From positions 4,499 to 68,498 of the forward strand of contig JAJRUN010000052.1 in assembly GCA_024277755.1 (NCBI GenBank): DNA of 64,000 nucleotides. Direction: 5' to 3'. Position numbers and translations under genes: made by a program. Source of the stretch: Gammaproteobacteria bacterium (GTDB lineage: Bacteria; Pseudomonadota; Gammaproteobacteria; Tenderiales; Tenderiaceae). Below are positions 18,602-55,277 of the stretch, piece after piece. The notes beneath the pieces are model-generated. The model had not been told where the DNA came from and did no database searches. It saw only the letters and a program-made list of their open reading frames with translations. Position 1 is the first letter of the stretch. Each line of letters begins with the position of its first letter.

Positions 18602-18871
18602 TTAGCGACGCAAACCCAGACGTGAAATCAGGTCACGGTAACGAGTGAGGTCTTTCTTTTTCAGATAATCCAGCAGTTTACGACGCTGACTTACCATGCG
18701 CAGCAGACCTTGGCGTGAATGGTGATCATGTGAATGTTCTTTGAAGTGACCAGACAACTGATCAATACGGGCACTCAATAGCGCTACTTGAACTTCTGGA
18801 GAACCAGTGTCTCCTTCAGCACGTTGATAATCAGAAACAACCTTCTGTTTGGCTTCTGCATTTAATGACAT
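18602..18871 (-). CDS. rpsO: 30S ribosomal protein S15
   Basis: 89 aa [36 protein letters not shown]... Confidence 0.95.
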
Positions 18872-18981
18872 TTATCTCTCCCAAGATTTTACTAAAAGCT
18901 TAAAGCGGCACATTTTACAGCCGCAAAGGACCTGAAACAAGCGTGGAATCACCTCAATCCCCATAAAAACAGGGATTTGGC

Positions 18982-25103: not shown

Positions 25104-25180
<77 letters not shown>

Positions 25181-33425: not shown

Positions 33426-33462
33426 TGCTTCTCTCCTTCTGTAAATATTTCAACACAAACGG

Positions 33463-34880: not shown

Positions 34881-34929
34881 ATTACAACAAAAACCTTACC
34901 ACCAATGTGACTGAATGGCATTTTAATAA

Positions 34930-35559: not shown

Positions 35560-35582
35560 GTGTCTCTTGATTGGATACTATT

Positions 35583-36155: not shown

Positions 36156-36463
36156 GCAGACCACCCATACTGTTATTATTAGTCTTCATTATTTGCCAAC
36201 GAATAGACCGTCCAATCCTCCCGGGGTTCAGTTCAGCGAAAAAAAACATATTATGAGACCTTTGCACGTCACAATCACGAGTAAAAATGGCTAATATTCT
36301 CCTGCTTTTCGTTAGAAAACTTGTCAATAGCTCGCTATTAACTGCATTTTCTGCCTCAATCAGAAAAATATTAGCTCATTTTTCTTTCGCGCCTGGATCG
36401 TGCAAAGATCCCATTATATGATAAGTCTTTGAAAATATTTATTCTTATTGCACTCCAACTGAC

Positions 36464-38134
36464 ATGACACAATTACACTATGACGCCATCATCATTGGCG
36501 GAGGGGCTGCGGGCCTGAGCCTGGCATTACACTTAGCCAGCAAAGCAAAGATCGCAGTCATCACCAAAGGGGCACTGCACGAAGGTGCCACCTATTATGC
36601 CCAAGGTGGCATATCTGCTGTATTGGATGCCAAAGACTCGGTTGAATCACACATTGAAGATACCCAGCAGGCTGGTGCAGGCCTATGCGACCCTGATGTG
36701 GTGCGCTACACCGTTGAACATGGCCGTGAGGCCATTGACTGGCTAGTGGAATGCGGCGTCGATTTTGACCGCAAAACCCAGGCAGATGGCAGTTATGATT
36801 TCCACCTGACTCGTGAAGGCGGACACAGCCACCGCCGCGTACTGCACGCCTCTGATGCGACCGGCAAAGAAATCCAAAATAGCCTTGTCAGTCAACTCAA
36901 AAATCACGCCAATATTGATGTCCTGGAAAACCATATCGTCATCGATCTCATCACAGATGAAAACAATCGCAATCAAGGCTGCTATGTACTAGACAGACAA
37001 AACCAGCAAGTCACCACGCTTGCCTGCCGCTTTACTGTGCTCGCCACTGGCGGAGCCGGCAAGGTATATCTCTACACCAGCAACCCGGATGTATCCACCG
37101 GCGACGGCATTGCCATGGCCTGGCGCGCCGGTTGCCAAGTCGCCAACATGGAATTCGTGCAATTCCACCCCACCTGTCTTTATCATCCCAAGGCAAAGTC
37201 GTTTTTGATCACCGAAGCCATCCGCGGTGAAGGAGGCATTCTTAAGCTCCCAGACGGCACACGTTTCATGCCCAGTTTTCATCCCGACGCCGAACTGGCA
37301 CCACGTGACGTCGTCGCCCGCGCCATCGATCATGAAATGAAGCGCCTGGGTATCGACTGTGTTTATCTTGATATAAGCCACCAGGCGGCTGACTTCATTC
37401 GTACACACTTCCCCAACGTCTACACCAAATGTCTGACGTTCGGCATCAACATCACCCAAGAACCTATTCCTGTGGTTCCAGCAGCACACTACACCTGTGG
37501 AGGCGTCATCACCAACATGCATGGGCAAACCGATATAGCCAACCTCTACGCCATTGGTGAAACCGCCTTTACCGGGCTGCATGGTGCCAACCGTATGGCC
37601 AGCAACTCCCTACTTGAATGTTTGGTATTCGCCAAGGCCGCCGGACAGGACATAGCCAAACGCCTTAATGAGACCTATGCCCCCCCTAAACTACCCGAAT
37701 GGGATGCCAGCCGGGTAACCGAATCACCCGAAGAGATAGTCATCGCCCATGATTGGGACGAACTACGCCGTGTCATGTGGAATTATGTCGGTATCGTCCG
37801 TACCAACAAACGCTTGCAACGCGCATATAAACGAATACAGGTACTGCAAAAAGAGATCGACGAATACTACGCCAGCCATACCGTTAACAACGACTCACTG
37901 GAACTACGCAACCTGGTGCTTGTTGCAGAATTAATCGTACGTTCAGCCATACAACGTAAAGAAAGTCGTGGTCTGCATTACACGCTGGATTATCCTATGA
38001 CGGATAACAACAACCTACACAACACTATTCTAATCCCAGAAAACCCACATCATGCCCCACAACAATCAATAGAACCGATTAGGGATGACGCCGCTTCAGA
38101 TCAGCCAACCATAACGCCACCCGCTCCTTGTTGA
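36464..38134 (+). CDS. nadB: L-aspartate oxidase
   Basis: 556 aa; FAD-binding [13 protein letters not shown]; divergent from rpoE as in E. coli and Pseudomonas. Confidence 0.9.
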
Positions 38135-38630
38135 GTTCACTCATGCCTAAATAGTACTGATAATATTTAATTGCCACCACAGGCTGCTGTAAATAAAGGT
38201 CATACAAAACAGCCAGATTCAAAACCGGATCAGAATAGCCAGCATCCTTATCAACGGCTTGAAGATAAGCTGACTCCGCATCCTTAAAACGCCCCACAGA
38301 ACGATAAAAAATGGCGGCAGCATTATAAATTTTTGCACTTTCTGGCTGCAATTGAATTGCCTCATCAAAGGCAGCCGCCGCTTGTTCTGTCAAACCCTGG
38401 CGCTGATACAACAAGCCAAGATTGGCATACGGACCAGCGAGCCCAGGGTAGTCCAGAGTCATTTTTAAAAACTGCTCAATCGCCGTATCATCCTGACCAG
38501 CCTGCATAACAGCCAGTGAAAGCCGGTAATCATCTTCGGCCACAGCACTCTGGTGCTGCTTAGGTATAGCAGTACAGGCAGCCAAGATCAGAATCAGCAA
38601 TAAACATAAAATTCGCTTAATGCAAATCAT
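38079..38630 (-). CDS. TPR-repeat lipoprotein (small)
   Basis: Likely start [19 protein letters not shown] (lipobox LAAC); TPR-like helices. Overlaps the 3' end of nadB convergently. Last gene of a 7-gene minus-strand operon. Confidence 0.55.
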
Positions 38631-41415
38631 CAACCACCTCAATAATCAATTCCTGCTTGGCGTATTTCACCGGCAATAATTTTGCCAAGGTAGCAAACGA
38701 TTTGGCCACCCATTCGGTATACACCCCATCTCCAACACGATCAATATTCGACTCAAGAAACTTGATCGCCTGCTCTTCAAACGGATAAGCCTGTTCCTCA
38801 AGCATCATCTCATACTGCTCCATCTCTTCATCATCAAGCCCGGCAGGACGCGATGACTCAAGCAGGGCAATACTTAACTTAAAATATACCTCACCGATTC
38901 TACGATTTGCCGCCGTGACAAACTCAGCATAACCATAGCGGCTTGTTTTATCATAGGCCGCCAAAGCAAGTTCCATCTTCTTTTTCTTATTGGCAAGGTT
39001 TTTACGTAGCGGTTCAACCAATTTAATTAAATCAAACTCGATAAAACTTGCTTCAGCCAATATTAATGATGCACTGGCTGCATAGTATTGAATCACCTCA
39101 TTTTGCTGCGCCGCAACAAGTCCAGCGTTTTTAACAATCTGGTTCAGCCAATAATCACGCTTATCAAATTGACCAAGCTGTGTATAAATTTCCGACAACT
39201 GTGAACGCACATAAAACTTCTGCTCAGAGACACCGGGATATCGATACACATAGCGTTTATAAACAGCAATAGCCTTGAGTAAATGATTTACCTGTCGATA
39301 CAACTGGCCAGACTGTAGCAAGGCTTCTTGCTGGACGTCAGTATCCCGGCTACGATTGGCAATCTGCTCATAGGCATTAGCTGCATCCGCAGTCCTTTCC
39401 AATTTTAAATAGACATAAGCAAGCTTAACCGGAACCTCAGACTGTAATTCATGCCCTGGATAAGCCGTTTGAAATTTTTCCAGCAAGCCTGCTGCCTGAC
39501 GCCACTCTTCCATACCAATCAGCGCAGCTGCCGCATCATATTTTGCCTGGGCAACAAGTTTACTATTGGCCGCAACGGCCTCTATTCTAAGCAGATGTTC
39601 TACAGCCAGGCGCATCTCACCGCGTTCCAGAAAAGCCTCTGCCTGTTTATAAATAGAGGATGCCAGCCATTCCTCAGACTCGAGTGTCTGGCCACCCAAT
39701 TCACTCTGATAATTGAGTGCCCGCTGATAGGCCATTTCGGCCTGAAGAAAATCCTGATTCTGAAAACTGATATGCCCCACCATCATCCAGGCAGAAAAGG
39801 CATCCTCAGATACAAGTTCTTGAGGGCCATCTAGCAACAACTTAAGCAGCAACATCGCTTTGTCATTATCACCCCGATCAAAATCATCACTGGCAAGTGA
39901 CAACACTGTATTCGGCACACGCCGGTCATCAGGAAAATGAGAGATAAATTTCTGCGCACTCTGATGTAATCGTTGACGCCAACTATCTGCCTCACTCTCT
40001 ACACCGACCTCTAACTGTTTTTGATAGCTTAAAATGGCGCTATAAGCCGCCCCTGCTGCCCACTCATTATTTGGATAAAAATAAGCAACCTGTTCAAATT
40101 CGTCACCCGCTTCCTGATAGTGTCGGTTATCAAATAAAATTTCAGCAAATAAAAAGTGTTTTTCAACCGCATTAGCTTGCGAATGAAAATTTTTAAGATA
40201 GACCTGATACCAATTAACCGCTGCATTAAAGTCTGACTCCAGCTTGGCCTTCTGAAAACGCGCATGATAAAAGTCAGTCAAGTCATTCAAATAAGCCATG
40301 GCAAAATCAGAAATATAGACAGCATACTCAATAGAAAAACCAATCACTGTCTCGCCACGATACCAATGTTGATTAAGAAATTCTTCCTTGGCCTTTATCA
40401 CTTGCGTTTGATCATTAAGAACCCGATAAGCATCCACCAGCCTCAATTGAAATATAGCAGCACTGTAGGACTTCGGATAACGGGCGATATAGGCAGCATA
40501 GGTCTGCACTTCATCCAGATAACGCTCATCTTTATGATATAGCTCCGCCAGACTCTGAAAGATTAAATGAATGTGCTCTGCCTGAGCATATTTATGACTG
40601 AAATATTCTAACTCGTGAATATCATTTTTCAAGGCGAAAATTAAAGTCATACCACGCAGAATATCAGTCAGAATTTCTAGATCTGCCTTGCCAATATCAA
40701 TAGGTTTACCGTTGATCTGATCAAATTCAACCTGATCAAGTTTCAAATCAAGCAACTGAAAAAATGATTCCAGAGCATCATCAAATCGATCCTGTTTAAA
40801 AGCAGCCCAACTGAATTTGAGCAGGCTTTGTTCATAAAACGGCCTACCCTTACCCTTCTCAACCACAACTGAATATAAGGTCGCTGCCTGATCGTAATTG
40901 CCATCCAGAAAGTTTAATTCTGCAATCCTGAAATTGGCTTCAGAAAAATAGCGACTATTTTGATGCTGGCTAACCAACCTTAATAACAGCTGAGCAGTCT
41001 TATCAATTTCACCCCGCTTGTCATAGACCCGGGCAAGTTGATAGAGAACCAAATCAGTCTCTGAATAATTAGGATAACTATTTAGCAACTCTTCGTAAAT
41101 TAAAATGGCCTCAGGGTATTCATTGATTTTCTCAACACCACTGCCATCTGCCTGTTTTATTTCACGCTGCTCACCATAATCCAGCAACAAATCAGCAAGC
41201 CGATGCATGGCTTGTGGCCGAAACGGGTTATCAACAGAAAACACCAACAACTGCCGATAAGATTTAATTGTTTCAAGTGGCGAAATTTGCAACGGTTGTT
41301 GCCTATCAGGCTTTACATCAGTACCTTCAAGCTCAGACAGTGTCACACCAGAATATTTTGAACTGCTGCAAGCAACAAGAAAGAGAACCATCATCCCAAT
41401 GAACAAGGGTTTCAC
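38617..41415 (-). CDS. large TPR-repeat lipoprotein (932 aa)
   Basis: Signal/lipobox MMVLFLVACSS; numerous TPR-like repeats throughout. Size and architecture resemble PEP-CTERM-type TPR lipoproteins, but no exosortase is present here. Confidence 0.6.
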   Translation of the reverse strand: MKPLFIGMMVLFLVACSSSKYSGVTLSELEGTDVKPDRQQPLQISPLETIKSYRQLLVFSVDNPFRPQAMHRLADLLLDYGEQREIKQADGSGVEKINEYPEAILIYEELLNSYPNYSETDLVLYQLARVYDKRGEIDKTAQLLLRLVSQHQNSRYFSEANFRIAELNFLDGNYDQAATLYSVVVEKGKGRPFYEQSLLKFSWAAFKQDRFDDALESFFQLLDLKLDQVEFDQINGKPIDIGKADLEILTDILRGMTLIFALKNDIHELEYFSHKYAQAEHIHLIFQSLAELYHKDERYLDEVQTYAAYIARYPKSYSAAIFQLRLVDAYRVLNDQTQVIKAKEEFLNQHWYRGETVIGFSIEYAVYISDFAMAYLNDLTDFYHARFQKAKLESDFNAAVNWYQVYLKNFHSQANAVEKHFLFAEILFDNRHYQEAGDEFEQVAYFYPNNEWAAGAAYSAILSYQKQLEVGVESEADSWRQRLHQSAQKFISHFPDDRRVPNTVLSLASDDFDRGDNDKAMLLLKLLLDGPQELVSEDAFSAWMMVGHISFQNQDFLQAEMAYQRALNYQSELGGQTLESEEWLASSIYKQAEAFLERGEMRLAVEHLLRIEAVAANSKLVAQAKYDAAAALIGMEEWRQAAGLLEKFQTAYPGHELQSEVPVKLAYVYLKLERTADAANAYEQIANRSRDTDVQQEALLQSGQLYRQVNHLLKAIAVYKRYVYRYPGVSEQKFYVRSQLSEIYTQLGQFDKRDYWLNQIVKNAGLVAAQQNEVIQYYAASASLILAEASFIEFDLIKLVEPLRKNLANKKKKMELALAAYDKTSRYGYAEFVTAANRRIGEVYFKLSIALLESSRPAGLDDEEMEQYEMMLEEQAYPFEEQAIKFLESNIDRVGDGVYTEWVAKSFATLAKLLPVKYAKQELIIEVVDDLH

Positions 41416-43295
41416 TGACCGTCCTCATCAATCTTCAGATTAATATCGTAAATATGCGCGACTGAGAGCAGTGCTTGAGAACGATATATTTCAATTTTTT
41501 CTTTAACTACAACCAGCTCATCAACAAGCATGGAATGCAAATAAGCATCATACTGTTGCAGTAAAGAATCAACCTGATCCGCTGCTGTTTTCAGCTGCTG
41601 GGCGACAGTCGCCAACCGCTGCCTATGGCCATCGTAGTTCTGCGGCAGGGACTTTATGATTTCTTTTATATTTCTTTTATATTGATCAGCGTGACTGTTT
41701 TTCTTTTCTAACTCAGACAGATTATTTTTTATATTTCTAAGTCGAATTTTATAACGGGTCATCAAATCCCACTTTAACAACCCAGCCAGCAGACGATTTT
41801 TATGCTGCAGATCCGCCATTCGACCAAGCAGTTCTGCAGGTTTTAGTTTTCCTTCGAAATTTTCAAGGCTATATGTAATCCGCTCATTTACACGACGAAA
41901 CTGATGCAAGTTTTTCAGCTCAGTAGAATCAGCAAGCGCCAGGGCGTCCTCATCCATTTCTATCACCGAAATTCTGGCAGAAAACACCTGAATGGCCTTA
42001 CTGTGATTCTGCTCTGACAACTGTTTAAGCCTGTCCATGGCCCTTGGCTTAAGTTCGGAATTGGCCGAAACTTTCACATCAACAATATCATCAAAGACAT
42101 GAATGCTTGTCAGCCATTTACCCAGGTTTTTTTTAATAAACAGTAAATCCCGATAATTTTTCAGGCTCTCCTGAAATTTATGACTAGAGATAAATTCCAG
42201 AATATATGGGCTCTGCAATACCCCCTCCAACACATCATGCTGCCAGTACCAACCGATCTCATCGTCAGAATCAAGTTCGACCATAGCCAAAATCAATTCA
42301 GAAAAATCTGTTATTTCAAGCTGCTGATCAATCGAATTCAACTGCTGATGATACACATCAATGGCCTTTTTATATTCAGCCAACGAGTCCGAATAGTTCC
42401 CGGTTTGATATAACAAATATGGTTTGGCCAGATAGGCTTCAAGTATATTGACATCAATAGGCTCACGATCTGCCAGTTCAGACCAGGCCGTATTGGCAAT
42501 GGCAAACTCATTGATACCGAATGCCGACCAGCCTAGCCCTAACAAGGCTGGATTTGAAAATCGGCCATGCAATTCAATCTGGCCAAAATACTGACTAGCC
42601 AGCTCAAACTGTTGGTTTTTCAGGTGCAGGTTTGCTAACAACAAATTGACCCTATCAATCAAAGCTGCAGACTCCGCATCTTGCCTCGGCACTGCCGCAA
42701 CCTTATTCAGCAGCGTTATGGCTAATGCCTGATCACCCTGTTTGAGAAGTGAAATGGCTAGATTTGAACGGGCATAAACAGAGTTTTTATTTCCTTTGAT
42801 CTGTTTTTCTAAAAACTCAATGGCTTGCTCAACCTTGTTAATCTTCATCAAGCTAAGCGCCGTCAAGGTCAGGCGTTCATCTTCAAGCTTTCCAGGCAAT
42901 GGTAAAGTTATTTTTTCAAGATGATCATAGGCTAACTGATAATAGCCTCGCTGAAATTGAATCTTCGCCAGATAAAACCAGGCACGATCTCGCGACTGCT
43001 TATCAACCGCGGTCTCAAGAACACGATTGAATATCTGTTCTGCATTTCGCTGCAGGCCATATCCCAGATATAAGCTGCCAAGCAAGGCCTTAGCCTCAAG
43101 AGCATCAACCGCCAACGTGCCTTGGCTCAGTCCCTTTTCAAGTTGAATAATGGCGCTAAAGAACTTTTGCTGGTTGAAATTAAACAGCACCTCGCCATAA
43201 AAAGGGCTGTTGACTCGTTGAACATCTGCCTTAATCGGAGTAATGAATAAACAGAATAACGTCAGCAGCAATACAAAAAACTGAATAACACCCAT
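41412..43295 (-). CDS. secreted TPR-repeat / coiled-coil protein (627 aa)
   Basis: Signal peptide; N-terminal TPR repeats; C-terminal long coiled-coil-like region (K/E/L-rich). Confidence 0.55.
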   Translation of the reverse strand: MGVIQFFVLLLTLFCLFITPIKADVQRVNSPFYGEVLFNFNQQKFFSAIIQLEKGLSQGTLAVDALEAKALLGSLYLGYGLQRNAEQIFNRVLETAVDKQSRDRAWFYLAKIQFQRGYYQLAYDHLEKITLPLPGKLEDERLTLTALSLMKINKVEQAIEFLEKQIKGNKNSVYARSNLAISLLKQGDQALAITLLNKVAAVPRQDAESAALIDRVNLLLANLHLKNQQFELASQYFGQIELHGRFSNPALLGLGWSAFGINEFAIANTAWSELADREPIDVNILEAYLAKPYLLYQTGNYSDSLAEYKKAIDVYHQQLNSIDQQLEITDFSELILAMVELDSDDEIGWYWQHDVLEGVLQSPYILEFISSHKFQESLKNYRDLLFIKKNLGKWLTSIHVFDDIVDVKVSANSELKPRAMDRLKQLSEQNHSKAIQVFSARISVIEMDEDALALADSTELKNLHQFRRVNERITYSLENFEGKLKPAELLGRMADLQHKNRLLAGLLKWDLMTRYKIRLRNIKNNLSELEKKNSHADQYKRNIKEIIKSLPQNYDGHRQRLATVAQQLKTAADQVDSLLQQYDAYLHSMLVDELVVVKEKIEIYRSQALLSVAHIYDINLKIDEDGQ

Positions 43296-43301
43296 GCCCC
43301 A

Positions 43302-43844
43302 TCATTCCCACTCTTTAACTAGAAACTTGGGCTGGTTTTTTTCTTGTGACTCTGAAATTTTCAGTTCAATGTATTTCGGATCAAATGTTTTTACAAAGAT
43401 ATAACTCGCTCCACGGCGATAGTCCCGACCATTGGGGCCTGTACCGGTAAAAATCACCACCACTTCATGCTCACCCTTTTTAAGGTTCTCAACATGAAGT
43501 TTCTGTACACCTCCTTTACTCAAGGCTTTGACCTCCCTGTCTGTATAGAGATAATTGCTCACAACTTTGCCATCGAGCGTCAATTTAATTGAATCCAGTT
43601 TGAAATAAGTATCACCTTCCATCGAAAGAAAAAAGAAGGTTTGCGTATTAACAGGAAACAGCAGCTCTTCTTCAAGGATAAACAGTTCTCGATTGATGGA
43701 AATAACGTCCTTTTTCAGGGCTTCAACTTGTTCATCAAGACTTTGAAATTCTTGTGTATCGGCAGCGGCGCCTATCACTGGCAACACAAGCATGCTCATC
43801 AAGCCAATTCCCAACCACCTCTTTTTATAAAACCAACTCATCAC
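43302..43844 (-). CDS. small secreted protein of unknown function (180 aa)
   Basis: Signal peptide MMSWFYKKRWLGIGLMSMLVLPVIGAAA; no recognisable family. Operonic with flanking genes (gaps 7-10 nt). Confidence 0.45.
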   Translation of the reverse strand: MMSWFYKKRWLGIGLMSMLVLPVIGAAADTQEFQSLDEQVEALKKDVISINRELFILEEELLFPVNTQTFFFLSMEGDTYFKLDSIKLTLDGKVVSNYLYTDREVKALSKGGVQKLHVENLKKGEHEVVVIFTGTGPNGRDYRRGASYIFVKTFDPKYIELKISESQEKNQPKFLVKEWE

Positions 43845-43853
43845 CAGAACTTC

Positions 43854-45440
43854 CTAAATCGTGCCATTAACTATCGGGGCAAAGGCGGTCAAACTATCCA
43901 GCATAGTGCTATTACCCAATCCATGGTTTGAAAATTGTGTTGCAAAACTACCCTGTTCACCATGCAGAGCCATGTAATTCAACGCGATGGTTTCAACAAG
44001 CAGATTGACATTATTGGCCGCCGGGCTTGAGGCCGTTTCTACCGAGGCGTCTGAACGAAAATAACCGATTTGCTGATGCCGCGCCTGCTGATCAGCATTG
44101 GCTCCGAGCAAGGAGGGTCGGCCACCTGGATTATAAACCAGAAAAAACGATGCGGCGGTGGATGAGTTATCCCCGGTCCAGACACCTTTTCCCCGCCCTT
44201 CAACTGAGTCATCAATCGTACCATTGCTCGCCACAGAACCATCACTGAAAACGTAAATCATCAATGGCATGCCAAGCCGTGCGGCATATTCAAGGCAGGC
44301 ACCAATACAACGACCGGCACGAAGATCACGTATTTCACCAACTGAGCGATTACCGGTATGGTAATCATAACCGCCCATGGTAATAGTGCCCGCACCTGCA
44401 AAACCGTTAACTACCAGTTTCATTACTGCAGCAGTTTTACGAAACTCGGCATCGCTATCCAGTTCAGCCTGCGAAAATATAGCACCAATAATATTGGGAT
44501 CAATATTCGGATTGAGTGCCGCCGGATCACCATAGCGATCCACCAGATCAGCCGCTTTAACGTAACCACAGTTGATCATATCTTTCAGCACAGCATCAGC
44601 AGTTATCTTGCTATCGACTCGCCCCAGTTTTTTAGCACTGATACGCTGAATTGATTCCAGCACCGCCACAGCATCATCCTGACTCAGCAAGCCAACCAGT
44701 TTTCCGGTATCAACCAGCCCCGTCACATCGCTGGGACGATCTATTTTGGTCGGCCGCACCGCACTGTTAATCATTGCCGCAGGTGCAACTGAGTTACCGC
44801 CAGAGTCAGAGCTGCGCGAACCAATCAGTGTCAACAATTCACCATCGGCTCCAGCCCTGTTAATGGCGTACATGGGGTTATGCGGATTATTGCCCGTATC
44901 ATTATCAGAGCGTGCCGGGATCACTGCACCATTAACACCGGCATGGGTCGACACTGACGTTCTCTCCAAAATTCCGCGCAAGAAAGCGCTGTCAGAGTGA
45001 AACGCCAAACCAAGATCGGTATTAATAAAATCGCGTGTACCGCTGTCTGCATTGGCGATGAATGGCGCCATGTCACCCGGCAGACCAAGCTTGTTGTAAC
45101 CCGCCGTAGAAAGAAAATCGAGCTGCCCTCCTTGTTGTCCCACCAGCACATTTGAACCACTGATGTTTGCGCCACCCGCCAGATCAAAACAGATAAACGG
45201 GATTTTTCCTGCCCCCTGAGCAGCAATGCCGCAACTCCCCTTCAAGGTCTCAAGATCAGCCGACAAGGCCGCCTGGGCTGTGCGTGGATTAGCAAACAAG
45301 CTGAAAATTGTCGGCCCCATGGCAAGCCCCAGCCCCGCGGTCAAACCTTGGGCAAGAAAGTCACGTCGTGTAACCGGCCGTTTGTGATTAGCGTGCAACA
45401 GTGGTGCATCAGGTGAAAGTAATCTGGATTTTCTCGACAT
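43854..45440 (-). CDS. TAT-exported DUF1501-like protein (sulfatase/alkaline-phosphatase-superfamily-like partner of PSCyt/PSD proteins)
   Basis: 528 aa; twin-arginine signal VTRRDFLAQGLTAGLGLAMG...AQA. Size and position immediately downstream of a multi-CXXCH PSCyt-like protein are typical of DUF1501. Confidence 0.55.
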   Translation of the reverse strand: MSRKSRLLSPDAPLLHANHKRPVTRRDFLAQGLTAGLGLAMGPTIFSLFANPRTAQAALSADLETLKGSCGIAAQGAGKIPFICFDLAGGANISGSNVLVGQQGGQLDFLSTAGYNKLGLPGDMAPFIANADSGTRDFINTDLGLAFHSDSAFLRGILERTSVSTHAGVNGAVIPARSDNDTGNNPHNPMYAINRAGADGELLTLIGSRSSDSGGNSVAPAAMINSAVRPTKIDRPSDVTGLVDTGKLVGLLSQDDAVAVLESIQRISAKKLGRVDSKITADAVLKDMINCGYVKAADLVDRYGDPAALNPNIDPNIIGAIFSQAELDSDAEFRKTAAVMKLVVNGFAGAGTITMGGYDYHTGNRSVGEIRDLRAGRCIGACLEYAARLGMPLMIYVFSDGSVASNGTIDDSVEGRGKGVWTGDNSSTAASFFLVYNPGGRPSLLGANADQQARHQQIGYFRSDASVETASSPAANNVNLLVETIALNYMALHGEQGSFATQFSNHGLGNSTMLDSLTAFAPIVNGTI

Positions 45441-45454
45441 TATCTTCTCACCCT

Positions 45455-49130: not shown

Positions 49131-49369
49131 TTATTTGTAACAACTAAGTTTAAAAAGATATTTACATCCATCATTCCTGCGTATTCTATACCAAAGACTC
49201 GCCCTAATGTGTTACACAAATCACATAAAAAACATCGACCATAAACCGTTCATTATTCGTCGCCAATTAGCGACAAATAAATTAAATGTGAAACTGTTCA
49301 AACATTACTGACGCCATAACTTATAATATTCATCTTTACGGGCAATGCAGTATTGATGCAGGACTAACA

Positions 49370-52033
49370 ATGAGTTTCAGAATTTACCGAAACGAAAAAA
49401 ATATAGCAGTGATTTTTACACTTTGCTTAAGCAGCCTGCTGTACGGCTGTCTTGACCAGGCACAACAGCAGGATGATCCCATTGCTGTACTGCTTGATTA
49501 CCCTATTGCCTACGTCAAACGTCCCCTGCTATTGAACAGCCAAGGTGAACCAGCACAAATTGACCTGCTCGACCTGCAAGACTTCAACCCCGGTGCCGAC
49601 CTCTTTCTGCGTGATCGTGCCTCACCCAGCGCACCGGAACAAAATATTACCTTTCGTTTTACTAATGGCCAAGGCGATGTAAAAGACCTCGAAAGCAGCG
49701 CCGATGGCAGCAAACTTATATTTTCAATGCGTGCAGCTGAGATCGAAAATGCCGATGAGGACGAACAACCCAGCTGGAATATTTGGCAATACGAAATTGC
49801 AACAGACACACTGACACGCATCATTGGTTCTGACATCACTGCCGAGGCTGGCGACGATATTTCGCCCGCTTATCTGCCTGATGGAAAAATTGTTTTTTCA
49901 TCCACACGCCAACGCAATGCAGGCGCTATTCTGCTTGATGAAGGCAAGCCACGCTTCACTGCCGAAACAGAGAGTCGTAATGGCCCCGCCTTTGTATTGC
50001 ACGTTATGGATGAAGATGGAGCCAACATAAAACAAATTTCATTTAACCAGAGCCATGACATTGACCCAACCGTGTCGCCAAACGGCGACATCATATTCAG
50101 CCGTTGGGACAACATGGGCAGCCGTAACAATATCAACCTTTATAAAATCAATGCCGACGGTACCGGACTGGAAATTTTGTATGGGGCACACAGCCATAAC
50201 AACGGCAGTGGTAATTCAAGCGTTCAATTGACACAAGCGCGTGAAATGACAGATGGCAAGATTGCCGTTCGCCTGACCCCCTTCCGTGGCACAAATGGCA
50301 GCGGCAACTTTGTTGCCATTGATATCGACAACTATCTCGATGCTGAGTTTACAAAACACAGCAACACCGCCAACACCGCAGGCTCAGGACAAACAAACCT
50401 GACAGGGCTAAATCTTTTTAGCGACAACAGCATCAGTCGCGATGGCTATGTCAGCGCCTTTTACCCGCTTTGGGATAACAGCAATCGCGCCCTGATTAGC
50501 TGGAGCCCTTGTCGTCTTATTGAGACAAATACCAATCAAACAGAAATAATTGTCCCCTGCACCAGCGAACGGCTGGCTGCTGCCGAGCCAGTCGCCGCCG
50601 CCCCCTTGTATGGCATCTACATCTACGATATGAACAACAACACCCAGCTACCCATTGTTACACCAGAGGAAGGCATCATCATTCATGACGTAGTGGCCAC
50701 CGATGAACGGCTGAGTTATACCCTGCTCAGCACCACCCTGCTTAACAGTGGCTTTGCCGATGAAGGTGTGGGCGTGCTTGATATTCGCAGTGTCTATGAT
50801 ATTGATGGTTTTGACACCACCACCAACAGCATCACCAGTATGGCTGATCCGGCACAAACAATGGCAGCACAACGCCCGGCCCGGTTTCTGCGCATCATCA
50901 AGGCCGTGCCCTTACCTGACCGTGACAGTCTCGACTTTGACAACAGCGCCTTTGGCCGCAGCAATCAATTGATGCGCGAAATCATTGGCTATGCGCCGGT
51001 TGAACCCGATGGTTCGGTCAAAGTAAAAGTTCCGGCCAATATGCCACTAGCCATCAGCATTGTAGATGCGAATGGTCGCCGCATCAGCGCCCGACATCAA
51101 AACTGGTTGCAGCTGCGTGCCGGTGAAAACAAACAATGCAATGGCTGCCATGACCACAACAGCGGTATTCCTCACGGCAATAGCGAAGGCCCCAACAGTG
51201 TGTATGGCGGTGCAGCACAAACCGGCAGCGCCTTTAAAAATACAGATAATTCTATAAGAGCTGAAGCCAACGAAACCATGGCCCAAACACTGGCACGCAT
51301 CAGCTGTGCGTCTGACTGTGCCTACCTGACACCAAGCGTCAATCCCCGCTTTATCGACAACTGGACTGACAGCAATATCCAGGCCAAGGATGAACCATTT
51401 TCATACCTCTATTCAGATATGACCACCACAGCGCCAACCACGGCAGCCTGCCAAACCAGCTGGACCCCCCTATGCCGTATCATCATCAATTACGAAACTC
51501 ACATCCACCCGCTTTGGTCCGCACCGCGCAGCATTTTAAATACGAACACTCTGCTCGATGAAGACCGCAGATGCAGCAGCTGCCACACCAACCAGGATCT
51601 TGCAGGCAATCCAATGCTGCCTGATGCCCAGCTTGATTTAAGTGATGGCCCATCAACTGACGAACCCGATCACTTCAAGTCTTACCGCGAATTATTGTTT
51701 GCAGACAACCTGCAAGAGTTGGTCAACAACAGCCTGCAAGACGTTATAATTCAAGACACTGACAATCAAGGCAATCTATTATTTGAAACTGACACAGAAG
51801 GAAACCTGATCCTGGGGCCGGATAACAACCCTGTACCGGTGATGGTAGCGGTGCCTGCAAACGGCCCCGCCATGTCAGCCAATGGCGCCAACAGCAGTTA
51901 TTTTTTCGATCGCTTTGATGCTGGCGGCAGTCACGCTGGCTGGCTCAGCAATGCCGAGCTACGCCTGCTATCGGAATGGCTGGATATCGGCGGCCAGTAT
52001 TACAATAACCCGTTTGACATTCCGCAGCCCTGA
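49370..52033 (+). CDS. lipoprotein with PD40/TolB-like beta-propeller repeats and two C-terminal CXXCH motifs (887 aa)
   Basis: Signal plus lipobox LLYGC; repeated (L/S)P(D/N)G(K/D)I(V/I)F(S)S(T)R-type PD40 motifs; CNGCH and CSSCH in the C-terminal third. Confidence 0.55.
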   Translation: MSFRIYRNEKNIAVIFTLCLSSLLYGCLDQAQQQDDPIAVLLDYPIAYVKRPLLLNSQGEPAQIDLLDLQDFNPGADLFLRDRASPSAPEQNITFRFTNGQGDVKDLESSADGSKLIFSMRAAEIENADEDEQPSWNIWQYEIATDTLTRIIGSDITAEAGDDISPAYLPDGKIVFSSTRQRNAGAILLDEGKPRFTAETESRNGPAFVLHVMDEDGANIKQISFNQSHDIDPTVSPNGDIIFSRWDNMGSRNNINLYKINADGTGLEILYGAHSHNNGSGNSSVQLTQAREMTDGKIAVRLTPFRGTNGSGNFVAIDIDNYLDAEFTKHSNTANTAGSGQTNLTGLNLFSDNSISRDGYVSAFYPLWDNSNRALISWSPCRLIETNTNQTEIIVPCTSERLAAAEPVAAAPLYGIYIYDMNNNTQLPIVTPEEGIIIHDVVATDERLSYTLLSTTLLNSGFADEGVGVLDIRSVYDIDGFDTTTNSITSMADPAQTMAAQRPARFLRIIKAVPLPDRDSLDFDNSAFGRSNQLMREIIGYAPVEPDGSVKVKVPANMPLAISIVDANGRRISARHQNWLQLRAGENKQCNGCHDHNSGIPHGNSEGPNSVYGGAAQTGSAFKNTDNSIRAEANETMAQTLARISCASDCAYLTPSVNPRFIDNWTDSNIQAKDEPFSYLYSDMTTTAPTTAACQTSWTPLCRIIINYETHIHPLWSAPRSILNTNTLLDEDRRCSSCHTNQDLAGNPMLPDAQLDLSDGPSTDEPDHFKSYRELLFADNLQELVNNSLQDVIIQDTDNQGNLLFETDTEGNLILGPDNNPVPVMVAVPANGPAMSANGANSSYFFDRFDAGGSHAGWLSNAELRLLSEWLDIGGQYYNNPFDIPQP

Positions 52034-52035
52034 CC

Positions 52036-52766
52036 ATGCCATTCATCCTCATCATGCTGCTATCACTCTGCACTGGTTATGCCCAGGCAGAAGACCGCTA
52101 TCGCAAGGCTCAAATAACAGAACCCTATATTGAATTGCACACCGGCCCTGGCCGTGGCTACCCGGTGTTTCATGTGATCGACCGTGGCGAATGGATTGAA
52201 TCCAGCAACGCAGAACCGACTGGTTCAAGGTCGTTGCCAGCAACGGCATCACAGGCTGGACCCATCAAGATCAACTACTACAGACACTAAACCCGCAAGG
52301 CCAACAGACCCGCTTTGAACAAATCGACCAGAATCAATTCAGCAAACGCAAAACGGAAGCCGGTGTACTCGGCGGTGATATGGATGGCGCTCAAACCATA
52401 ACGCTTTACGCTGCTTACCGGTTCACCCAAAACCTGTCCAGCGAGTTTTCATTTATGCAAGCAGTGGGCAACTACTCCAACAACCTGATCACCAATATCA
52501 ACCTGCTCAACCAGCCCTTTCCAAACTGGCGAATATCGCCATATTTTGCCCTAGGCATGGGCAATATCAAGACCACACCAAGAGCAACCCTGGTACTGGC
52601 CAAAGACCGCAGCGATCTGCTGGCCCATTTCGGCATCGGTGCATACGGCTACATATCCAGCCGCTTTGCCCTGCGCGCCGAATATAATCGCTACGTGGTC
52701 TTTTCCAGCAATGATGACAATGAGGACATAAACGAATGGAAAATCGGACTGGTCACTTTTTTCTAG
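52036..52766 (+). CDS. SH3b-domain + outer-membrane beta-barrel protein, apparently split by a 1-nt frameshift near 52200
   Basis: ORF 52036-52290 gives signal peptide + SH3b start (YIELHTGPGRGYPVFHVIDRGEWIE). The SH3b end (TDWFKVVASNGITGWTHQDQL) continues in the -1 frame from about 52200 with no stop, into ORF 52380-52766, an OMP barrel ending in GLVTFF. Confidence 0.5.
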
Positions 52767-53383
52767 CCTCAGTGCTGCTCATCGTCAGCCTGATGCCCGG
52801 CACAGCCAGGGCCGAAACAGACACGCCTATTCAAGTGATCAATCCCAGTCTCGAACGGGAGCCTGTCAAACCTGCCCGTATCGACACGGAAAATTTCGAG
52901 CTAGGCGTCTATGTCGGCACACTCAGCATTGAGGACTTTGGCACCAGCACTGTCACCGGGGCGCGGCTGGCCTATCATTTCAGTGAAGACTTTTTTGCCG
53001 AAGCCGTTTATGGTCAGGCCACTGCCGGCGACACCAGCTTCGAACGTCTTAGCGGCTCGGTACAACTGCTCACCGATGCAGAACGCGATCTAAGCTATTA
53101 CAATATCTCCTTTGGTTTTAATATCCTGCCCGGCGAAGCCTTTGTGGGCAGTGGCCGCGCCTTTTACACCGCACTCTATCTGGTAGCAGGCACCGGCAGC
53201 ACCAAATTCGGTGGTGATAAGCGTCACACCCTAAACATGGGGTTTGGCTATCGTTTCATTTTTAATGACTGGCTTGCCGGACACCTGGATGCCCGTGACC
53301 ATATCTTCGACATCGACCTGCTGGGCAGCAACAAGACCAGCCACAACCTTGAAGTCAGCACCGGTCTGACACTGTTTTTCTAA
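52736..53383 (+). CDS. outer-membrane beta-barrel protein (OmpA-N/OmpW-like small barrel)
   Basis: 215 aa; signal peptide ...MPGTARA; alternating amphipathic beta-strands; C-terminal GLTLFF. Confidence 0.55.
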   Translation: MENRTGHFFLASVLLIVSLMPGTARAETDTPIQVINPSLEREPVKPARIDTENFELGVYVGTLSIEDFGTSTVTGARLAYHFSEDFFAEAVYGQATAGDTSFERLSGSVQLLTDAERDLSYYNISFGFNILPGEAFVGSGRAFYTALYLVAGTGSTKFGGDKRHTLNMGFGYRFIFNDWLAGHLDARDHIFDIDLLGSNKTSHNLEVSTGLTLFF

Positions 53384-53397
53384 TCCTGGAGTTAGAC

Positions 53398-53901
53398 ATG
53401 AATTTATTTCGCACCCTTGGCATTACATTGTTATCCCTGACGCTTGGACTGGCAGCACTGCCCAGTCAGGCCGAAGACAAAATGCCCGCCCCGGACTTCA
53501 CCCTGAAAAGCCATAGCGGCAAAAACATCAAACTCAGTGAATTACGCGGTGATGTGGTGATGATCAATTTTTGGGCCTCGTGGTGTGGCCCCTGCTTGCT
53601 GGAAATGCCTGCCCTGGAACAAATTCATCAACGCTACAAAGACCTTGGTTTTACCCTGTTAGGCGTTAATGTTGAGCAAGATATCAGCGAGGCAAAGGCC
53701 TATTTGAAAAAGGTCAATGTCAGCTTTCCGATTTTGTTTGATATCACCAATCAGGTCAGCGACGAATATGAAATCAGTGGTATGCCGACCACCTACCTGG
53801 TTGACCGTGACGGTAATCTGCGAAAACTTTACATTGGCTACCAACCCGGTACCTCAGAAGAGGTTTACATGCGAGAAATCAAAACCTTGCTAAAAGAATA
53901 A
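53398..53901 (+). CDS. periplasmic TlpA/ResA/DsbE-like thiol:disulfide oxidoreductase (redoxin)
   Basis: 167 aa; signal peptide; WASWCGPC active site; redoxin-fold layout. Confidence 0.8.
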   Translation: MNLFRTLGITLLSLTLGLAALPSQAEDKMPAPDFTLKSHSGKNIKLSELRGDVVMINFWASWCGPCLLEMPALEQIHQRYKDLGFTLLGVNVEQDISEAKAYLKKVNVSFPILFDITNQVSDEYEISGMPTTYLVDRDGNLRKLYIGYQPGTSEEVYMREIKTLLKE

Positions 53902-53902
53902 A

Positions 53903-54121
53903 ATGGCCAGAACCATCGCCACAACCTGCCTATTGCTAGTGCTTGGTGGCTGCTCAATTCAGCCCTGGGTCAAGCCTTATGAACGGGCCAGGTTAGCCGA
54001 CCCCATCATGAGTTTTAATCGTGACCCTATTTCATCAAGTTATATCAATCATGTCTATCAAGCACGTGAAGGTGCCCGCGGTGCAGAAAACGGACAAGGT
54101 GGTGGCTGTGGCTGTAATTAG
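53903..54121 (+). CDS. DUF4266-family small lipoprotein
   Basis: 72 aa; lipobox LVLGGC; P-W-x-(K/R)-P-x-E-R motif; diagnostic C-terminus GQGGGCGCN. Confidence 0.7.
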   Translation: MARTIATTCLLLVLGGCSIQPWVKPYERARLADPIMSFNRDPISSSYINHVYQAREGARGAENGQGGGCGCN

Positions 54122-55277
54122 AATCAACAACAAACATCTCAGTAAAATTGTTGCCGCTACCATCGCACTTGGCATCACCTTTCCATTGATGGCCGCTATT
54201 CTGCCCGCTGATCGTTTCGATGCCCTGGTGCACTCCTATAATGGCGGCGGCATGGAGATTAATGGCCCCTCACTATTGATTCGCAAAATGCTTGGCACCA
54301 GCACCTCGGTGTCGGCCAATTATTATATCGACTCCATCAGCAGCGCATCGATTGATGTCATCACCTCCGCCAGCCCCTATAAAGAAGAACGCAAGGAGCA
54401 CTCGGTCGGTATCGAATATTTGCATGATAAAAGCATCATGAGCTTTAACTACAGCAACAGTAAAGAAAATGACTACCAGGCAAAAACCTACAGCGTAAGC
54501 ATATCGCAGGATTTTTTTGGCGACCTGACCACCCTGTCCATGGGTTATGCCCGTGGCGATGACATAGTGCAACGCATCGTCAACACCCCCACGGGAAAAA
54601 CCCTTGACCTGAACTTTGGCAGCAAAAATACAGACCGGCAAAACTTCCGTCTCGGACTGTCACAAATACTCAGCAAACAAATGATACTGGGGCTGAACTA
54701 CGAGTTAATCACCGACAAGGGTTTTCTCAACAACCCCTATCGTCAGGTTCGTTTTGCCGATGGCAGTAAGGCCTTTGAAATCTATCCCAACACTCGCTCA
54801 AGCAATGCAGTATCAGCACAACTTAAATACTACCTCCCCTACCGCGCCGCACTCACGGGCGAGTTAGGGGTTTTTAATGATACTTGGTCCATTAACGCCA
54901 GCCACCTGAAATTAGCCTACAGTCACCCCCTTAAAAACGATTGGCTCATCGACCTGCGCTATCGTTATTATGACCAAAGTCGTGCCAGCTTTTACAGCGA
55001 CCTCTTTAGCGCGCCAGGGGCACAAACCTATATGGCACGAGATAAAGAACTCAGCAGTTTCAACAATCAAACCATTGGCTTTAGTGTCAGTTATGATCTG
55101 TCTCAACATGGCTGGAAACGGGTAGACAAAGGCAGCATCAACCTTGCCTTTGATCACATGATATTTGATTATCAGGACTTCAGGGATGCCTCGGTCGAGG
55201 GTGGCGAGATTGGCGCAGAACCGCTCTACAGCTTTTCCAGCAACGTGATACAGATGTACCTATCCATCTGGTATTGA
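54104..55277 (+). CDS. DUF3570-family protein (predicted outer-membrane beta-barrel), partner of DUF4266
   Basis: About 390 aa. Probable GTG start overlapping the DUF4266 stop gives a signal peptide (...KHLSKIVAATIALGITFPLMAA); ORF track shows the longer 54021 start. Beta-strand-rich; C-terminal aromatic residues. Confidence 0.55.

Follow-up and report, generated by a model that had tools for sequence, protein, structure and literature searches.

The closest described counterpart of the locus considered here is an ApbE-dependent flavinylation system composed of a TlpA-like protein, DUF4266 and DUF3570 (Meheust et al. 2021, eLife, PMC8238504). In that study, two tandem motifs of a Chlorobium DUF3570 protein were shown to be flavinylated, the CXC motif of DUF4266 was named as a likely redox motif, and clusters encoding DUF3570, DUF4266, a thioredoxin-like protein and ApbE, many of them together with DsbD, were found in many phyla. 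The portions of that study that deal with the DUF3570 system assign it no function and describe neither a barrel fold nor the partner genes present in our locus. A second point of reference is provided by homologues of the hydrazine synthase alpha subunit (HzsA) outside the anammox bacteria, which lack key residues (Hagglund et al. 2025, PMC12758564); in the sections of that paper devoted to such homologues, we found no description of gammaproteobacterial representatives in the gene context reported below.

Here, we describe a pair of divergent operons within a 64-kb window, that is, the whole stretch of DNA analysed, and compare it with related loci in other genomes. Part of the locus, the TlpA-DUF4266-DUF3570 module, is already described as the above flavinylation system (PMC8238504), such that the original prediction of a locus with no assigned function does not extend to the whole of it. 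The HzsA homology, the flavinylation motifs, the association with ApbE and ExbB/ExbD/TonB seen in related loci and a frameshift, all presented below, did not figure in that prediction. Our preferred reading, to which we assign a probability of roughly 0.55, is that the locus encodes an outer-membrane-associated thiol-to-flavin-to-haem relay built from two modules that gammaproteobacteria keep together. The locus brings the DUF3570 module, the non-anammox HzsA homologues and haem/Tat-partner modules of the PSCyt type into one testable system.

Organization of the divergent locus

The two divergent operons originally proposed were confirmed with all 13 of their genes, coordinates included. By the ORF calls, the genes are tightly packed or overlapping, with intergenic distances of -41 to +14 nt and several overlaps instead of the 3-15 nt gaps first given. 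The operons diverge from a 239-nt intergenic region (49131..49369), the presumed promoter region of both. Promoter-like sites were no more frequent across the locus than in shuffled sequence, and Fur-box-like sites were found neither in this region nor in 53 orthologous regions. At the far end of the minus-strand operon, nadB converges on the last gene. We refer to the first three minus-strand genes (encoding C401, L834 and T528) as module A and to the plus-strand operon as module B.

Inspection of N-termini showed a Sec, Tat or lipoprotein signal on each locus product, as anticipated, with plausible Sec signals on the secreted ones. Lipobox cysteines are C32 of the 834-aa protein, C27 of the 887-aa protein, C17 of DUF4266, and C16 and C23 of two TPR proteins; the first three of these were checked in orthologues and are 100% conserved. 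HMM searches bore out the earlier domain calls, namely TPR (in three proteins), LamG (Laminin_G_3), PD40, OMP barrel (OMP_b-brl), a WCGPC thioredoxin (AhpC-TSA/Redoxin), DUF4266 and DUF3570. The five predicted CXXCH motifs are present and are 100% conserved among 66-70 orthologues; they reside in three proteins, not four, with one in C401 and two each in L834 and H887.

Module A: haem proteins and a Tat-exported enzyme

C401 (47925..49130, minus strand) is a Sec-exported monohaem protein of 401 aa whose CXXCH motif reads CLGCH (residues 235-239, nt 48414-48428); conservation across 69 sequences is 99-100% for this motif and for C200, C351, C361 and C398. Matches to PSD2 were obtained for 29 of 33 C401 orthologues (best E 1e-5) and to PSCyt3 for nine of the 33 (best E 0.006), all below the Pfam cut-off, with the window protein itself scoring 17 bits against PSD2 (cut-off 25.8). 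This sub-threshold similarity suggests a distant relationship between C401 and the PSCyt3-PSD2 architecture.

The adjacent gene encodes L834 (45455..47959, minus strand), a lipoprotein of 834 aa defined by ORF call, HMM and orthologue alignment, for which M13 at 47923 is the likely true start. Its two CXXCH modules lie at nt 47720-47734 and 47372-47386; residues 357-517 form a Laminin_G_3 domain, and the C-terminal domain (about 673-834) is rich in Cys. Laminin_G_3 was recovered in all 33 orthologues, cytochrome c matches were weak and generic, and PSCyt1, PSCyt2 and PSD1 matched neither L834 nor any of its 32 orthologues (0/33). The proposed PSCyt/PSD Pfam membership is unsupported for L834 and stays below threshold for C401. 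L834 is a fusion: distant relatives encode the C-terminal domain as a separate lipoprotein of 232-252 aa and the dihaem part as a separate 564-aa protein.

T528 (43854..45440, minus strand; 528 aa) bears the Tat motif TRRDFL, of which R25 and R26 are invariant in 70 family members, and adopts an alkaline-phosphatase-superfamily fold with a core alpha/beta domain and an Asp/His constellation. The invariant Asp/His positions are consistent with a metal site, and T528 is probably a metalloenzyme. Of the description of this protein as Tat-exported and DUF1501-like, the first half stands; for the second, hmmscan returned no match to DUF1501 (PF07394) at E<=0.01 for T528 or at E<=1 for ten diverged relatives (~30-40% identity), nor did T528 match DUF1552. 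DUF1501 itself is presumably a member of the alkaline-phosphatase-like superfamily, as is the T528 fold. The T528 family has no Pfam model and shows 70-80% identity across orders; public annotation mislabels it as 'GspF'. Enzymes of the alkaline-phosphatase superfamily are normally hydrolases or transferases and not redox enzymes, a point against the redox relay proposed below, since such a fold does not explain the haems around T528.

Accessory S180 and TPR proteins

The minus-strand operon continues with S180 (43302..43844), a Sec-exported protein of 180 aa for which no family match was obtained and which is the first gene product of an accessory TPR module. S180 is found in 27 of 81 related loci, mostly encoded directly upstream of the TPR genes. 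TPR627 (41412..43295, minus strand; 627 aa) is an exported protein with TPR family matches and a long helical C-terminal half, present in 24 related loci. TPR932 (38617..41415, minus strand), a lipoprotein (C16) of 932 aa found in 21 related loci, combines YbgF/CpoB-like and BamD-like TPR units (TIGR02795, 91.4 bits; TIGR03302, 87 bits; both above cut-off), and the operon ends with TPR187 (38079..38642, minus strand), a small TPR lipoprotein (C23) of 187 aa. Most carriers of the locus, for example the Alteromonadales, lack the TPR genes.

Module B: a hydrazine synthase-like lipoprotein

The plus-strand operon opens with H887 (49370..52033), a dihaem lipoprotein (C27) of outer-membrane type, 887 aa long, matching HZS_alpha (E 5.5e-16) and, in its beta-propeller, PD40. 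Haem I (CNGCH, nt 51137-51151) lies in the HZS_alpha middle domain and haem II (CSSCH, nt 51572-51586) in the C-terminal domain. The sole PDB match of the H887 family profile is 5c2v_A (E 8.5e-15), aligned in three collinear segments; against the equivalog model NF052339 (hydrazine_alpha), H887 scores 2e-15 and 55.8 bits vs a cut-off of 800. On these profile comparisons, H887 is a distant homologue of HzsA. Its invariant H855 aligns with HzsA His772, the distal ligand of the electron-transfer haem alpha-II. For Tyr591, the haem alpha-I ligand, H887 has no counterpart: Ser598 stands at position +4 after the CXXCH His, and the family consensus also lacks Tyr. Genes for HzsB/HzsC-like beta/gamma subunits (a CCP-like dihaem protein and a propeller) were found neither in the window locus nor in related loci.

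Module B: small barrels, thiol proteins and DUF3570

Downstream of H887, the gene for an SH3_3 domain joined to an 8-strand OMP_b-brl barrel (52036..52766, plus strand) is interrupted by a 1-nt frameshift near 52198-52203, so that the SH3b-OMP barrel first described is upheld in its domains and not as an intact reading frame, the ORF being split into 84 aa and 128 aa. About 60 related loci encode an uninterrupted version of 243-259 aa; should the frameshift prove genuine, the strain that carries the window may have an impaired complex. It is followed by the gene for a second small outer-membrane beta-barrel, OMP215 (52736..53383, plus strand), which has a weak OMP_b-brl match and the C-terminus ...LTLFF and is present in 65 related loci.

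The next gene (53398..53901, plus strand) encodes a TlpA-type periplasmic thiol:disulfide oxidoreductase (AhpC-TSA 1.6e-29, Redoxin 2.5e-28) with a WCGPC motif, whose CxxC is 100% conserved in 63 sequences. The earlier recognition of a thiol-disulfide protein encoded within a co-conserved, exported envelope locus holds, and a redox role remains its best reading. The DUF4266 lipoprotein (53903..54121, plus strand; PF14086, 6e-22) ends in a C-terminal CGC; C17, C69 and C71 are invariant across 65 sequences.

The final gene, at 54081 (or 54021)..55277 on the plus strand, encodes DUF3570 (PF12094; E 2.1e-40, 139 bits vs cut-off 25). Tandem flavinylation motifs, DSISSAS and DVITSAS separated by a single I, are encoded at nt 54330..54374, with S90 and S98 (398-aa numbering) as the predicted attachment sites; both motifs carry Ser at the position that is Gly in the published logo. 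All 56 DUF3570 orthologues that cover the region contain the first motif, D-x-x-[ST]-[SG]-A-S; only four of the 56, the window protein included, match the second in its strict form, and the others keep [TS]-A-S. Among the locus proteins, DUF3570 alone carries a flavinylation motif, and from its sequence it is the only predicted ApbE substrate of the locus.

DUF3570 is modelled as a 16-strand outer-membrane beta-barrel in which residues 89-99, between strands 3 and 4, form the motif loop; with pLDDT <50, this loop is modelled with the lowest confidence of any region. Because all long connections run from odd- to even-numbered strands, standard outer-membrane-protein topology makes the motif loop L2 and predicted to face outward. 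In this model, the flavinylated loop would lie on the outer side of the barrel or inside it.

Conservation and linkage of the two modules

The divergent operon pair is real and widely conserved in marine gammaproteobacteria. H887 is divergent from T528 in all 65 related loci whose sequence extends 5.5 kb or more upstream of T528. All eight core genes are kept in 55 of the 61 loci that extend 9.5 kb or more; three of the other six run past the end of the locus sequence, and the remaining three are without TlpA at that position. The same gene order recurs in dozens of genera from several families, such that the locus organization reflects more than chance. Relatives of T528 were confirmed in at least 512 instances among species-representative genomes, and carriers include Alteromonas, Paraglaciecola, Colwellia, Shewanella, Microbulbifer, Woeseiaceae and sulfur-oxidising symbionts of clams and tubeworms; many carriers are aerobic heterotrophs. 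The adjacent hybrid kinase and response regulators, suggested earlier as controlling the locus, are not conserved with it: apart from three weak, non-adjacent kinase matches, none of the 81 related loci contains these genes or the catalase.

Relatives also supply genes that the window lacks. In 23 related loci, among them those of Alteromonas, Colwellia and Shewanella, ApbE either immediately follows T528 or closes the TPR operon, and ExbB/ExbD/TonB genes lie downstream of the TPR genes in ~12-13, the order after TPR187 being a small ORF, ExbB, ExbD, ExbD, TonB and ApbE. None of ApbE (sought by tblastn with two locus ApbE queries), DsbD, ExbB, ExbD or TonB is encoded within the 64-kb window; with no ApbE in it, flavinylation in the window organism is predicted only.

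The distribution of the modules bears on an alternative that we consider unlikely, namely that they are independent neighbours, with module A devoted to periplasmic glycan/ester binding and processing in the manner of the PSCyt/CBM proteins that are paired with Tat partners in PVC bacteria, module B a separate flavin/thiol system, and adjacency a product of shared regulation or history. Distant T528 relatives (31-39% identity) occur with a full-length C401 homologue (35-38% identity) and the L834 C-terminal-domain lipoprotein, and their 5-10 kb flanks contain no DUF3570 or HZS_alpha genes; these relatives have module A but not module B, so each module can function on its own. Ligand binding is suggested by the LamG domain, and the DUF3570/DUF4266/thioredoxin clusters described in PMC8238504 occur in many phyla without module A. 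Against independence, the divergent pairing in every informative locus persists across many genera and several families amid flanks that vary and are unrelated to each other, and ApbE, which serves module B, is usually encoded directly after T528 of module A.

Proposed mechanism

The results above establish which genes are present, how conserved they are, and what motifs, folds and homologies they have; we infer the order and direction of electron flow, the exposure of the loop, complex formation and the substrate of the preferred relay as follows. We take module B to be a version of the ApbE-dependent DUF3570 system in which the CxxC of periplasmic TlpA, presumably kept reduced by DsbD, may undergo thiol/disulfide exchange with the C-terminal CGC tail of DUF4266. 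Electrons reach the flavin of the thiol oxidase Erv2 by way of such a C-terminal CGC tail. DUF4266 would likewise exchange electrons with FMN covalently bound at S90 and S98 of DUF3570 and attached by an ApbE encoded elsewhere in the genome, the flavinylated loop being placed on the barrel's outward side or within the barrel. H887 and the two small barrels would complete an outer-membrane complex, H887 contributing a transfer haem, probably with bis-His ligation, and another haem adjoining the propeller. Module A would add three c-type haems through C401 and L834, the latter with its LamG binding domain, and T528 would probably carry out or prepare the last step on a bound substrate from the envelope or the exterior. 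S180 and the TPR proteins may form an accessory periplasmic scaffold, coupled in relatives to an ExbB-ExbD-TonB motor.

The same component set would also serve the opposite direction, in which electrons pass from periplasmic thiols via the DUF4266 CGC to FMN, the c-type haems and a terminal acceptor, making the complex an Erv/Ero-like sulfhydryl oxidase at the outer membrane. Transfer from a CGC tail to flavin to cytochrome c is the logic of Erv1/Erv2 and favours this direction. We nevertheless judge it distinctly improbable, as WCxxC proteins of the TlpA/ResA/CcmG type typically act as reductants supplied by DsbD, and DsbD, an electron importer into the periplasm, often accompanies the published clusters (PMC8238504).

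Highly unlikely, in our estimate, is a role in polymer or lipid export or modification, with DUF3570 as a PgaA/PelB/BcsC-like secretion barrel, the TPR proteins as its periplasmic scaffold and T528 as an EptC/BcsG-like phospho-group transferase acting on the exported molecule or on one of the envelope. No synthase, glycosyltransferase or inner-membrane exporter is encoded in the window or conserved in related loci; T528 is soluble, Tat-exported and devoid of the membrane domain found in pEtN transferases, and phosphatases and sulfatases score equal to or higher than these against it; the TPR genes are absent from most carriers, the Alteromonadales among them; and such a role would account for neither the flavin motifs nor the five invariant haem sites. 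A hydrazine synthase-like role in inorganic nitrogen chemistry (hydroxylamine, NO or hydrazine) is extremely improbable, for although H887 keeps both haem sites and the His772 equivalent, it has no HzsB/HzsC-like partner, Ser598 in place of Tyr591 and a score far below the equivalog cut-off, its carriers include many aerobic heterotrophs, and published non-anammox homologues are without key residues (PMC12758564).

A bolder extension of the preferred relay, which we advance tentatively and regard as rather doubtful, would make DUF3570 a 'flavo-porin': two covalent FMNs on an outward or lumenal loop would carry electrons across the outer membrane between the periplasmic thiol/haem relay of TlpA, the DUF4266 CGC tail and H887 and a substrate that is external or at the surface. 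Such a protein would occur in at least several hundred species of marine gammaproteobacteria, in linkage with a new family of Tat-exported metalloenzymes. If the flavin loop is surface-exposed, this would constitute a new route for electrons across the outer membrane.

Comparison with known systems

The exopolysaccharide secretins PgaA, PelB and BcsC are fused to TPR units and carry no flavinylation motifs; in the locus described here the TPR proteins are separate and optional, and synthase genes are missing. H887 shares with HzsA (PDB 5C2V) a collinear propeller, an HZS_alpha domain with the first CXXCH and a C-terminal domain with the second, along with the conserved His772 equivalent; it differs in being a lipoprotein, in the absence of beta/gamma partner genes and in the missing Tyr591 equivalent. 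Its partners are outer-membrane barrels, TlpA, DUF4266 and DUF3570, whereas the published non-anammox HzsA clades are accompanied by FG-GAP or ABC genes (PMC12758564).

In the PSCyt-PSD systems of planctomycetes and Verrucomicrobia with their Tat partners (DUF1501, DUF1552), a haem-motif protein, sometimes with Laminin_G_3, is likewise encoded beside a twin-arginine protein (Kamneva 2012, PMC3542564; He 2017, PMC5615132). The resemblance noted in the original prediction holds as an analogy, with a haem/LamG protein beside a Tat-exported protein of alkaline-phosphatase fold and with the sub-threshold PSD2 and PSCyt3 matches of C401 orthologues (PSD2 in 29/33). However, no locus member reaches a Pfam threshold for these families, L834 being without PSCyt1/2 or PSD1 and T528 without DUF1501 or DUF1552, and the window-type unit has three parts: haem protein, lipoprotein domain and Tat enzyme.

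The porin-cytochrome conduits (MtrAB, Cyc2) have no homology to the locus beyond a generic barrel, and the cofactor of the DUF3570 barrel would be covalent FMN, not haem; a flavo-porin, if it exists, would be their flavin-based counterpart. The nearest kin remains the ApbE-DUF3570 system, with which the window shares a DUF3570 bearing two tandem motifs, a DUF4266 with a C-terminal CXC and an adjacent thioredoxin-fold protein, as well as ApbE in the same locus in 23 relatives. The window departs from it in that its thioredoxin-fold protein is of the TlpA/Redoxin type, in that neither ApbE nor DsbD is encoded in the window, and in that the module lies in the same operon as H887, the HzsA-like dihaem propeller lipoprotein, and a pair of small outer-membrane barrels and is paired divergently with a haem/LamG/Tat-enzyme operon.

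Gene organization and integrity of the locus

The locus consists of two divergent operons separated by a 239-nt spacer, and our ORF map reproduced the gene list and coordinates of the original prediction. Read in its direction of transcription, the minus strand begins with the genes of module A, namely C401 (monohaem protein; 47925-49130), L834 (dihaem LamG lipoprotein; 45455-47959, with a likely start at M13, position 47923) and T528 (Tat-exported protein; 43854-45440), followed by the accessory TPR module of S180 (180-aa secreted protein; 43302-43844), TPR627 (41412-43295), TPR932 (38617-41415) and, last, TPR187 (38079-38642). On the plus strand, module B opens with H887 (887-aa dihaem propeller lipoprotein; 49370-52033) and continues with the SH3-OMP gene (52036-52766), OMP215 (52736-53383), TlpA (53398-53901), DUF4266 (53903-54121) and DUF3570 (54081-55277). 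The genes are tightly packed as predicted, although the spacings run from -41 to +14 nt, with several pairs overlapping, rather than from 3 to 15 nt. The TPR, PD40, OMP_b-brl, DUF4266, DUF3570, LamG and thioredoxin calls were recovered by HMM searches (TPR, Laminin_G_3, PD40, OMP_b-brl, Redoxin/AhpC-TSA, DUF4266, DUF3570), but hmmscan did not reproduce the DUF1501 and PSCyt labels. On inspection, each N-terminus has a plausible Sec signal, lipobox or twin-arginine motif, in keeping with the proposed export of all products. The five predicted CXXCH motifs are present, though in three proteins rather than four; each is 100% kept in 63-70 orthologues, as are the CxxC of TlpA, the CGC of DUF4266 and, where checked (L834, H887 and DUF4266), the lipobox cysteine.

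Within module B, the SH3_3 and OMP_b-brl gene carries a 1-nt frameshift near 52198-52203 that leaves two ORFs of 84 and 128 aa. In ~60 related loci the gene is unbroken, at 243-259 aa; here, either the assembly is in error or the gene has become a pseudogene. Elsewhere in the window, pnp (polynucleotide phosphorylase; 16433-18523, minus strand) contains an in-frame TAA at 18263-18265 (..RPSEK*TLT..), at a position that is Glu in E. coli. Together, these two lesions suggest sequencing errors or gene decay in the genome. The TPR genes (window 40001-44000) have a G+C content of 0.40-0.42, below the 0.45-0.51 of the remaining locus and window.

A promoter and terminator scan of the locus performed no better than on shuffled sequence, no Fur box was found in 54 intergenic regions (at least 5 mismatches of 19), and no Rfam family was detected inside the locus; the Rfam matches in the window are an SRP RNA (3411-3507), the S15 leader upstream of rpsO (18815-18931) and one tRNA (25107-25180). 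Just upstream of nadB are rpoE-rseA-rseB-rseC (31965-36164, minus strand) and a gene for a DegP-family protease (36464-38134), placing envelope-stress sigma-E regulon genes near the locus; these neighbors were not found in the related loci. Beside DUF3570, a 266-aa protein (55381-56181) has two receiver domains and no output domain, and a 1522-aa protein (58356-62924) is a PAS-GAF-HisKA-HATPase-REC-Hpt hybrid kinase.

Conservation across gammaproteobacteria

A scan of species-representative genomes confirmed at least 512 relatives of T528, the best 80 of which, all gammaproteobacterial judging by their record titles, were fetched for locus comparison, gene presence being scored by tblastn with the window proteins. 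Carriers among these best 80 of at least 512 include Sedimenticola, Thiodiazotropha, Chromatiaceae, Paraglaciecola, Alteromonas and Colwellia, as well as Shewanella, Microbulbifer, Kangiellaceae, Woeseiaceae and Steroidobacteraceae. Within the same best 80, the divergent C401-L834-T528 // H887 arrangement was present in 65/65 loci with ≥5.5 kb upstream of T528, and the eight core genes were complete in 55 of the 61 loci with ≥9.5 kb upstream; in three of the other six the locus sequence ends too early, and the remaining three have no TlpA at the expected position. Fewer related loci of this set, only ~20-27, carry S180 and the TPR trio. Past DUF3570 the neighbors differ between loci (yajC-secDF in one, moeA in another, and a response regulator, catalase and hybrid kinase in the window), and for this reason we place the end of the operon at DUF3570 and the regulators outside the conserved unit. 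The suggestion of the original prediction that the neighboring kinase and regulators may control the locus was rejected because these genes are not conserved with it among 81 related loci.

Clustering of all ORFs of the 81 loci, followed by Pfam assignment, identified additional accessory genes. ApbE is present in 23 of the 81, where it either immediately follows T528 or closes the TPR operon, and in TPR-bearing relatives the TPR operon leads into a small ORF, ExbB, ExbD, ExbD, TonB (a TonB_C protein) and sometimes ApbE, as at L002:17732-21507, L030:11572-12630 and other related loci. None of ApbE, ExbB, ExbD or TonB was found within the 64-kb window, where nadB converges on TPR187. Two Thiodiazotropha loci (L023:11733-13592 and L031:11786-13668) have lgt and a DUF3187 protein gene between T528 and S180, and insertion of lgt (prolipoprotein diacylglyceryl transferase) fits the many lipoproteins of the locus.

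Module B: a predicted flavinylation system and an HzsA-like protein

TlpA, DUF4266 and DUF3570 make up the gene set of an ApbE-associated system in which a DsbD link is frequent, the C-terminal CXC of DUF4266 is conserved, and flavinylation of a Chlorobium DUF3570 was demonstrated at two [S/T]GA[S/T] motifs (Meheust et al., PMC8238504). The window DUF3570 has a tandem DSISSAS-I-DVITSAS; the first motif is kept in 56/56 orthologues covering the region and the strict second motif in only 4/56, including the window, the rest keeping [TS]-A-S. A motif search of the locus found no flavinylation motif in its other proteins, and further ApbE substrates in the locus were rejected since the motif is confined to DUF3570.

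Porins and Omp85-type barrels were lower-placed matches for the DUF3570 barrel. In its model, the long connections are all odd-to-even (3-4, 7-8, 9-10, 13-14, 15-16) and the even-to-odd turns are short, except for a 10-residue 14-15 connection. From this pattern and the usual outer-membrane topology, the predicted flavinylation loop (residues 89-99, strands 3-4), which is modelled with the lowest confidence, would be extracellular loop 2 or would fold into the lumen. DUF3570 might even act as a flavo-porin whose loop-borne FMN moves electrons across the outer membrane, a more novel reading than the best-supported one and one that we advance tentatively.

H887 matches Pfam HZS_alpha (5.5e-16) and NCBIfam hydrazine_alpha (2e-15; 55.8 bits, where the cut-off is 800), and the sole PDB match of its family profile is hydrazine synthase alpha, HzsA (5C2V; E 8.5e-15, three collinear segments). 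The invariant H855 aligns to HzsA His772, the distal ligand of electron-transfer haem alpha-II; in the alignment, Tyr591, the unusual haem alpha-I ligand, has no counterpart, and no HzsB/HzsC-like gene was found at the locus. Judged by these profiles, H887 and hydrazine synthase alpha are distantly homologous. Hydrazine synthase function was rejected because both the partner subunits and the Tyr591 equivalent are absent, and H887 is best viewed as an HzsA-like dihaem propeller lipoprotein.

Module A: an older, separable unit

Neither T528 nor ten relatives (~30-40% identity) matched a Pfam or NCBIfam family. The T528 family is large and its conservation unusual, with >8000 close homologues (70-80% identity across orders) and 1370 clusters at 50% identity. 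Against PDB sequences, the T528 profile had no match beyond the Tat signal of nitrous-oxide reductase, and the L834 and C401 sequences had no match. In NCBI records, several T528 homologues (P0015, P0016, P0054) bear the name 'general secretion pathway protein GspF', apparently a propagated annotation error since T528 is a Tat-exported, alkaline-phosphatase-fold protein.

Distant T528 relatives (31-39% identity) adjoin a full-length C401 homologue and a lipoprotein of 232-252 aa with homology to residues 673-828 of L834, and one such locus (L085) encodes a separate 564-aa dihaem protein homologous to the L834 N-terminus (separate genes at L083:2745-6225 and L085:7997-13226); no module B genes were found nearby. 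Because the distant relatives split the parts of L834 and occur without module B, module A is, on this comparative evidence, an older, separable unit and L834 a gene fusion.

A putative outer-membrane redox relay

The reading that we consider best supported, with a probability of roughly 0.55, is that the locus encodes an outer-membrane-associated redox relay. Its components, their invariance, folds and genomic linkage are observed; what we infer concerns the sequence and direction in which electrons move, the physical contacts, the membrane side of the flavin and the substrate. TlpA, for which DsbD would be the probable upstream donor as in published clusters, would reduce the C-terminal CGC of the lipoprotein DUF4266 by thiol-disulfide exchange, and this tail would pass electrons to FMN bound covalently to the DUF3570 barrel. 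This flavin would in turn be coupled to the H887 haems and, by way of the divergent operon conserved alongside, to C401 and L834, with T528 as an associated metalloenzyme.

Alternatively, the operons could represent two independent modules, module A existing apart from module B in distant loci and the two being paired throughout the closer ones; we think this unlikely. A relay of the same components operating in the oxidising (Erv-like) direction, opposite to donation from DsbD, is less probable again. A polymer export or modification machine would account for the PgaA/PelB/BcsC-like barrel, the TPR proteins, which are accessory, and the EptC/BcsG-like fold of T528, and seems slightly more doubtful still. 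HZS-like nitrogen chemistry, despite the HzsA kinship of H887, is very improbable.

Comparison with known systems

Of the proposed redox relay, one sub-module (TlpA-DUF4266-DUF3570) has been described before and partly validated, and non-anammox HzsA homologues and PSCyt-type modules are known as unexplained families only. Literature searches on DUF1501, DUF1552 and HZS_alpha turned up no functional work on loci of this kind, and the searchable literature no description of these elements brought together in a single, strongly conserved locus of gammaproteobacteria, of a DUF3570 barrel model with loop-borne flavin sites, of the T528 family or of an ApbE/TonB association with the locus.

Against PSD2, C401 of the window reaches no more than 17 bits; among its orthologues, however, PSD2 is matched by 29/33 (best E 1e-5) and PSCyt3 by 9/33, and from these matches C401 is probably distantly related to the PSCyt3-PSD2 architecture of planctomycetes. 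For L834 and its orthologues, the searches gave LamG and, weakly, generic cytochrome c matches, and none to PSCyt1/2 or PSD1. In PVC bacteria, haem-motif proteins, some with Laminin_G_3, are encoded beside twin-arginine partners (Kamneva 2012, PMC3542564; He 2017, PMC5615132), and the likeness of these PSCyt-type modules to module A is one of architecture rather than of family membership.
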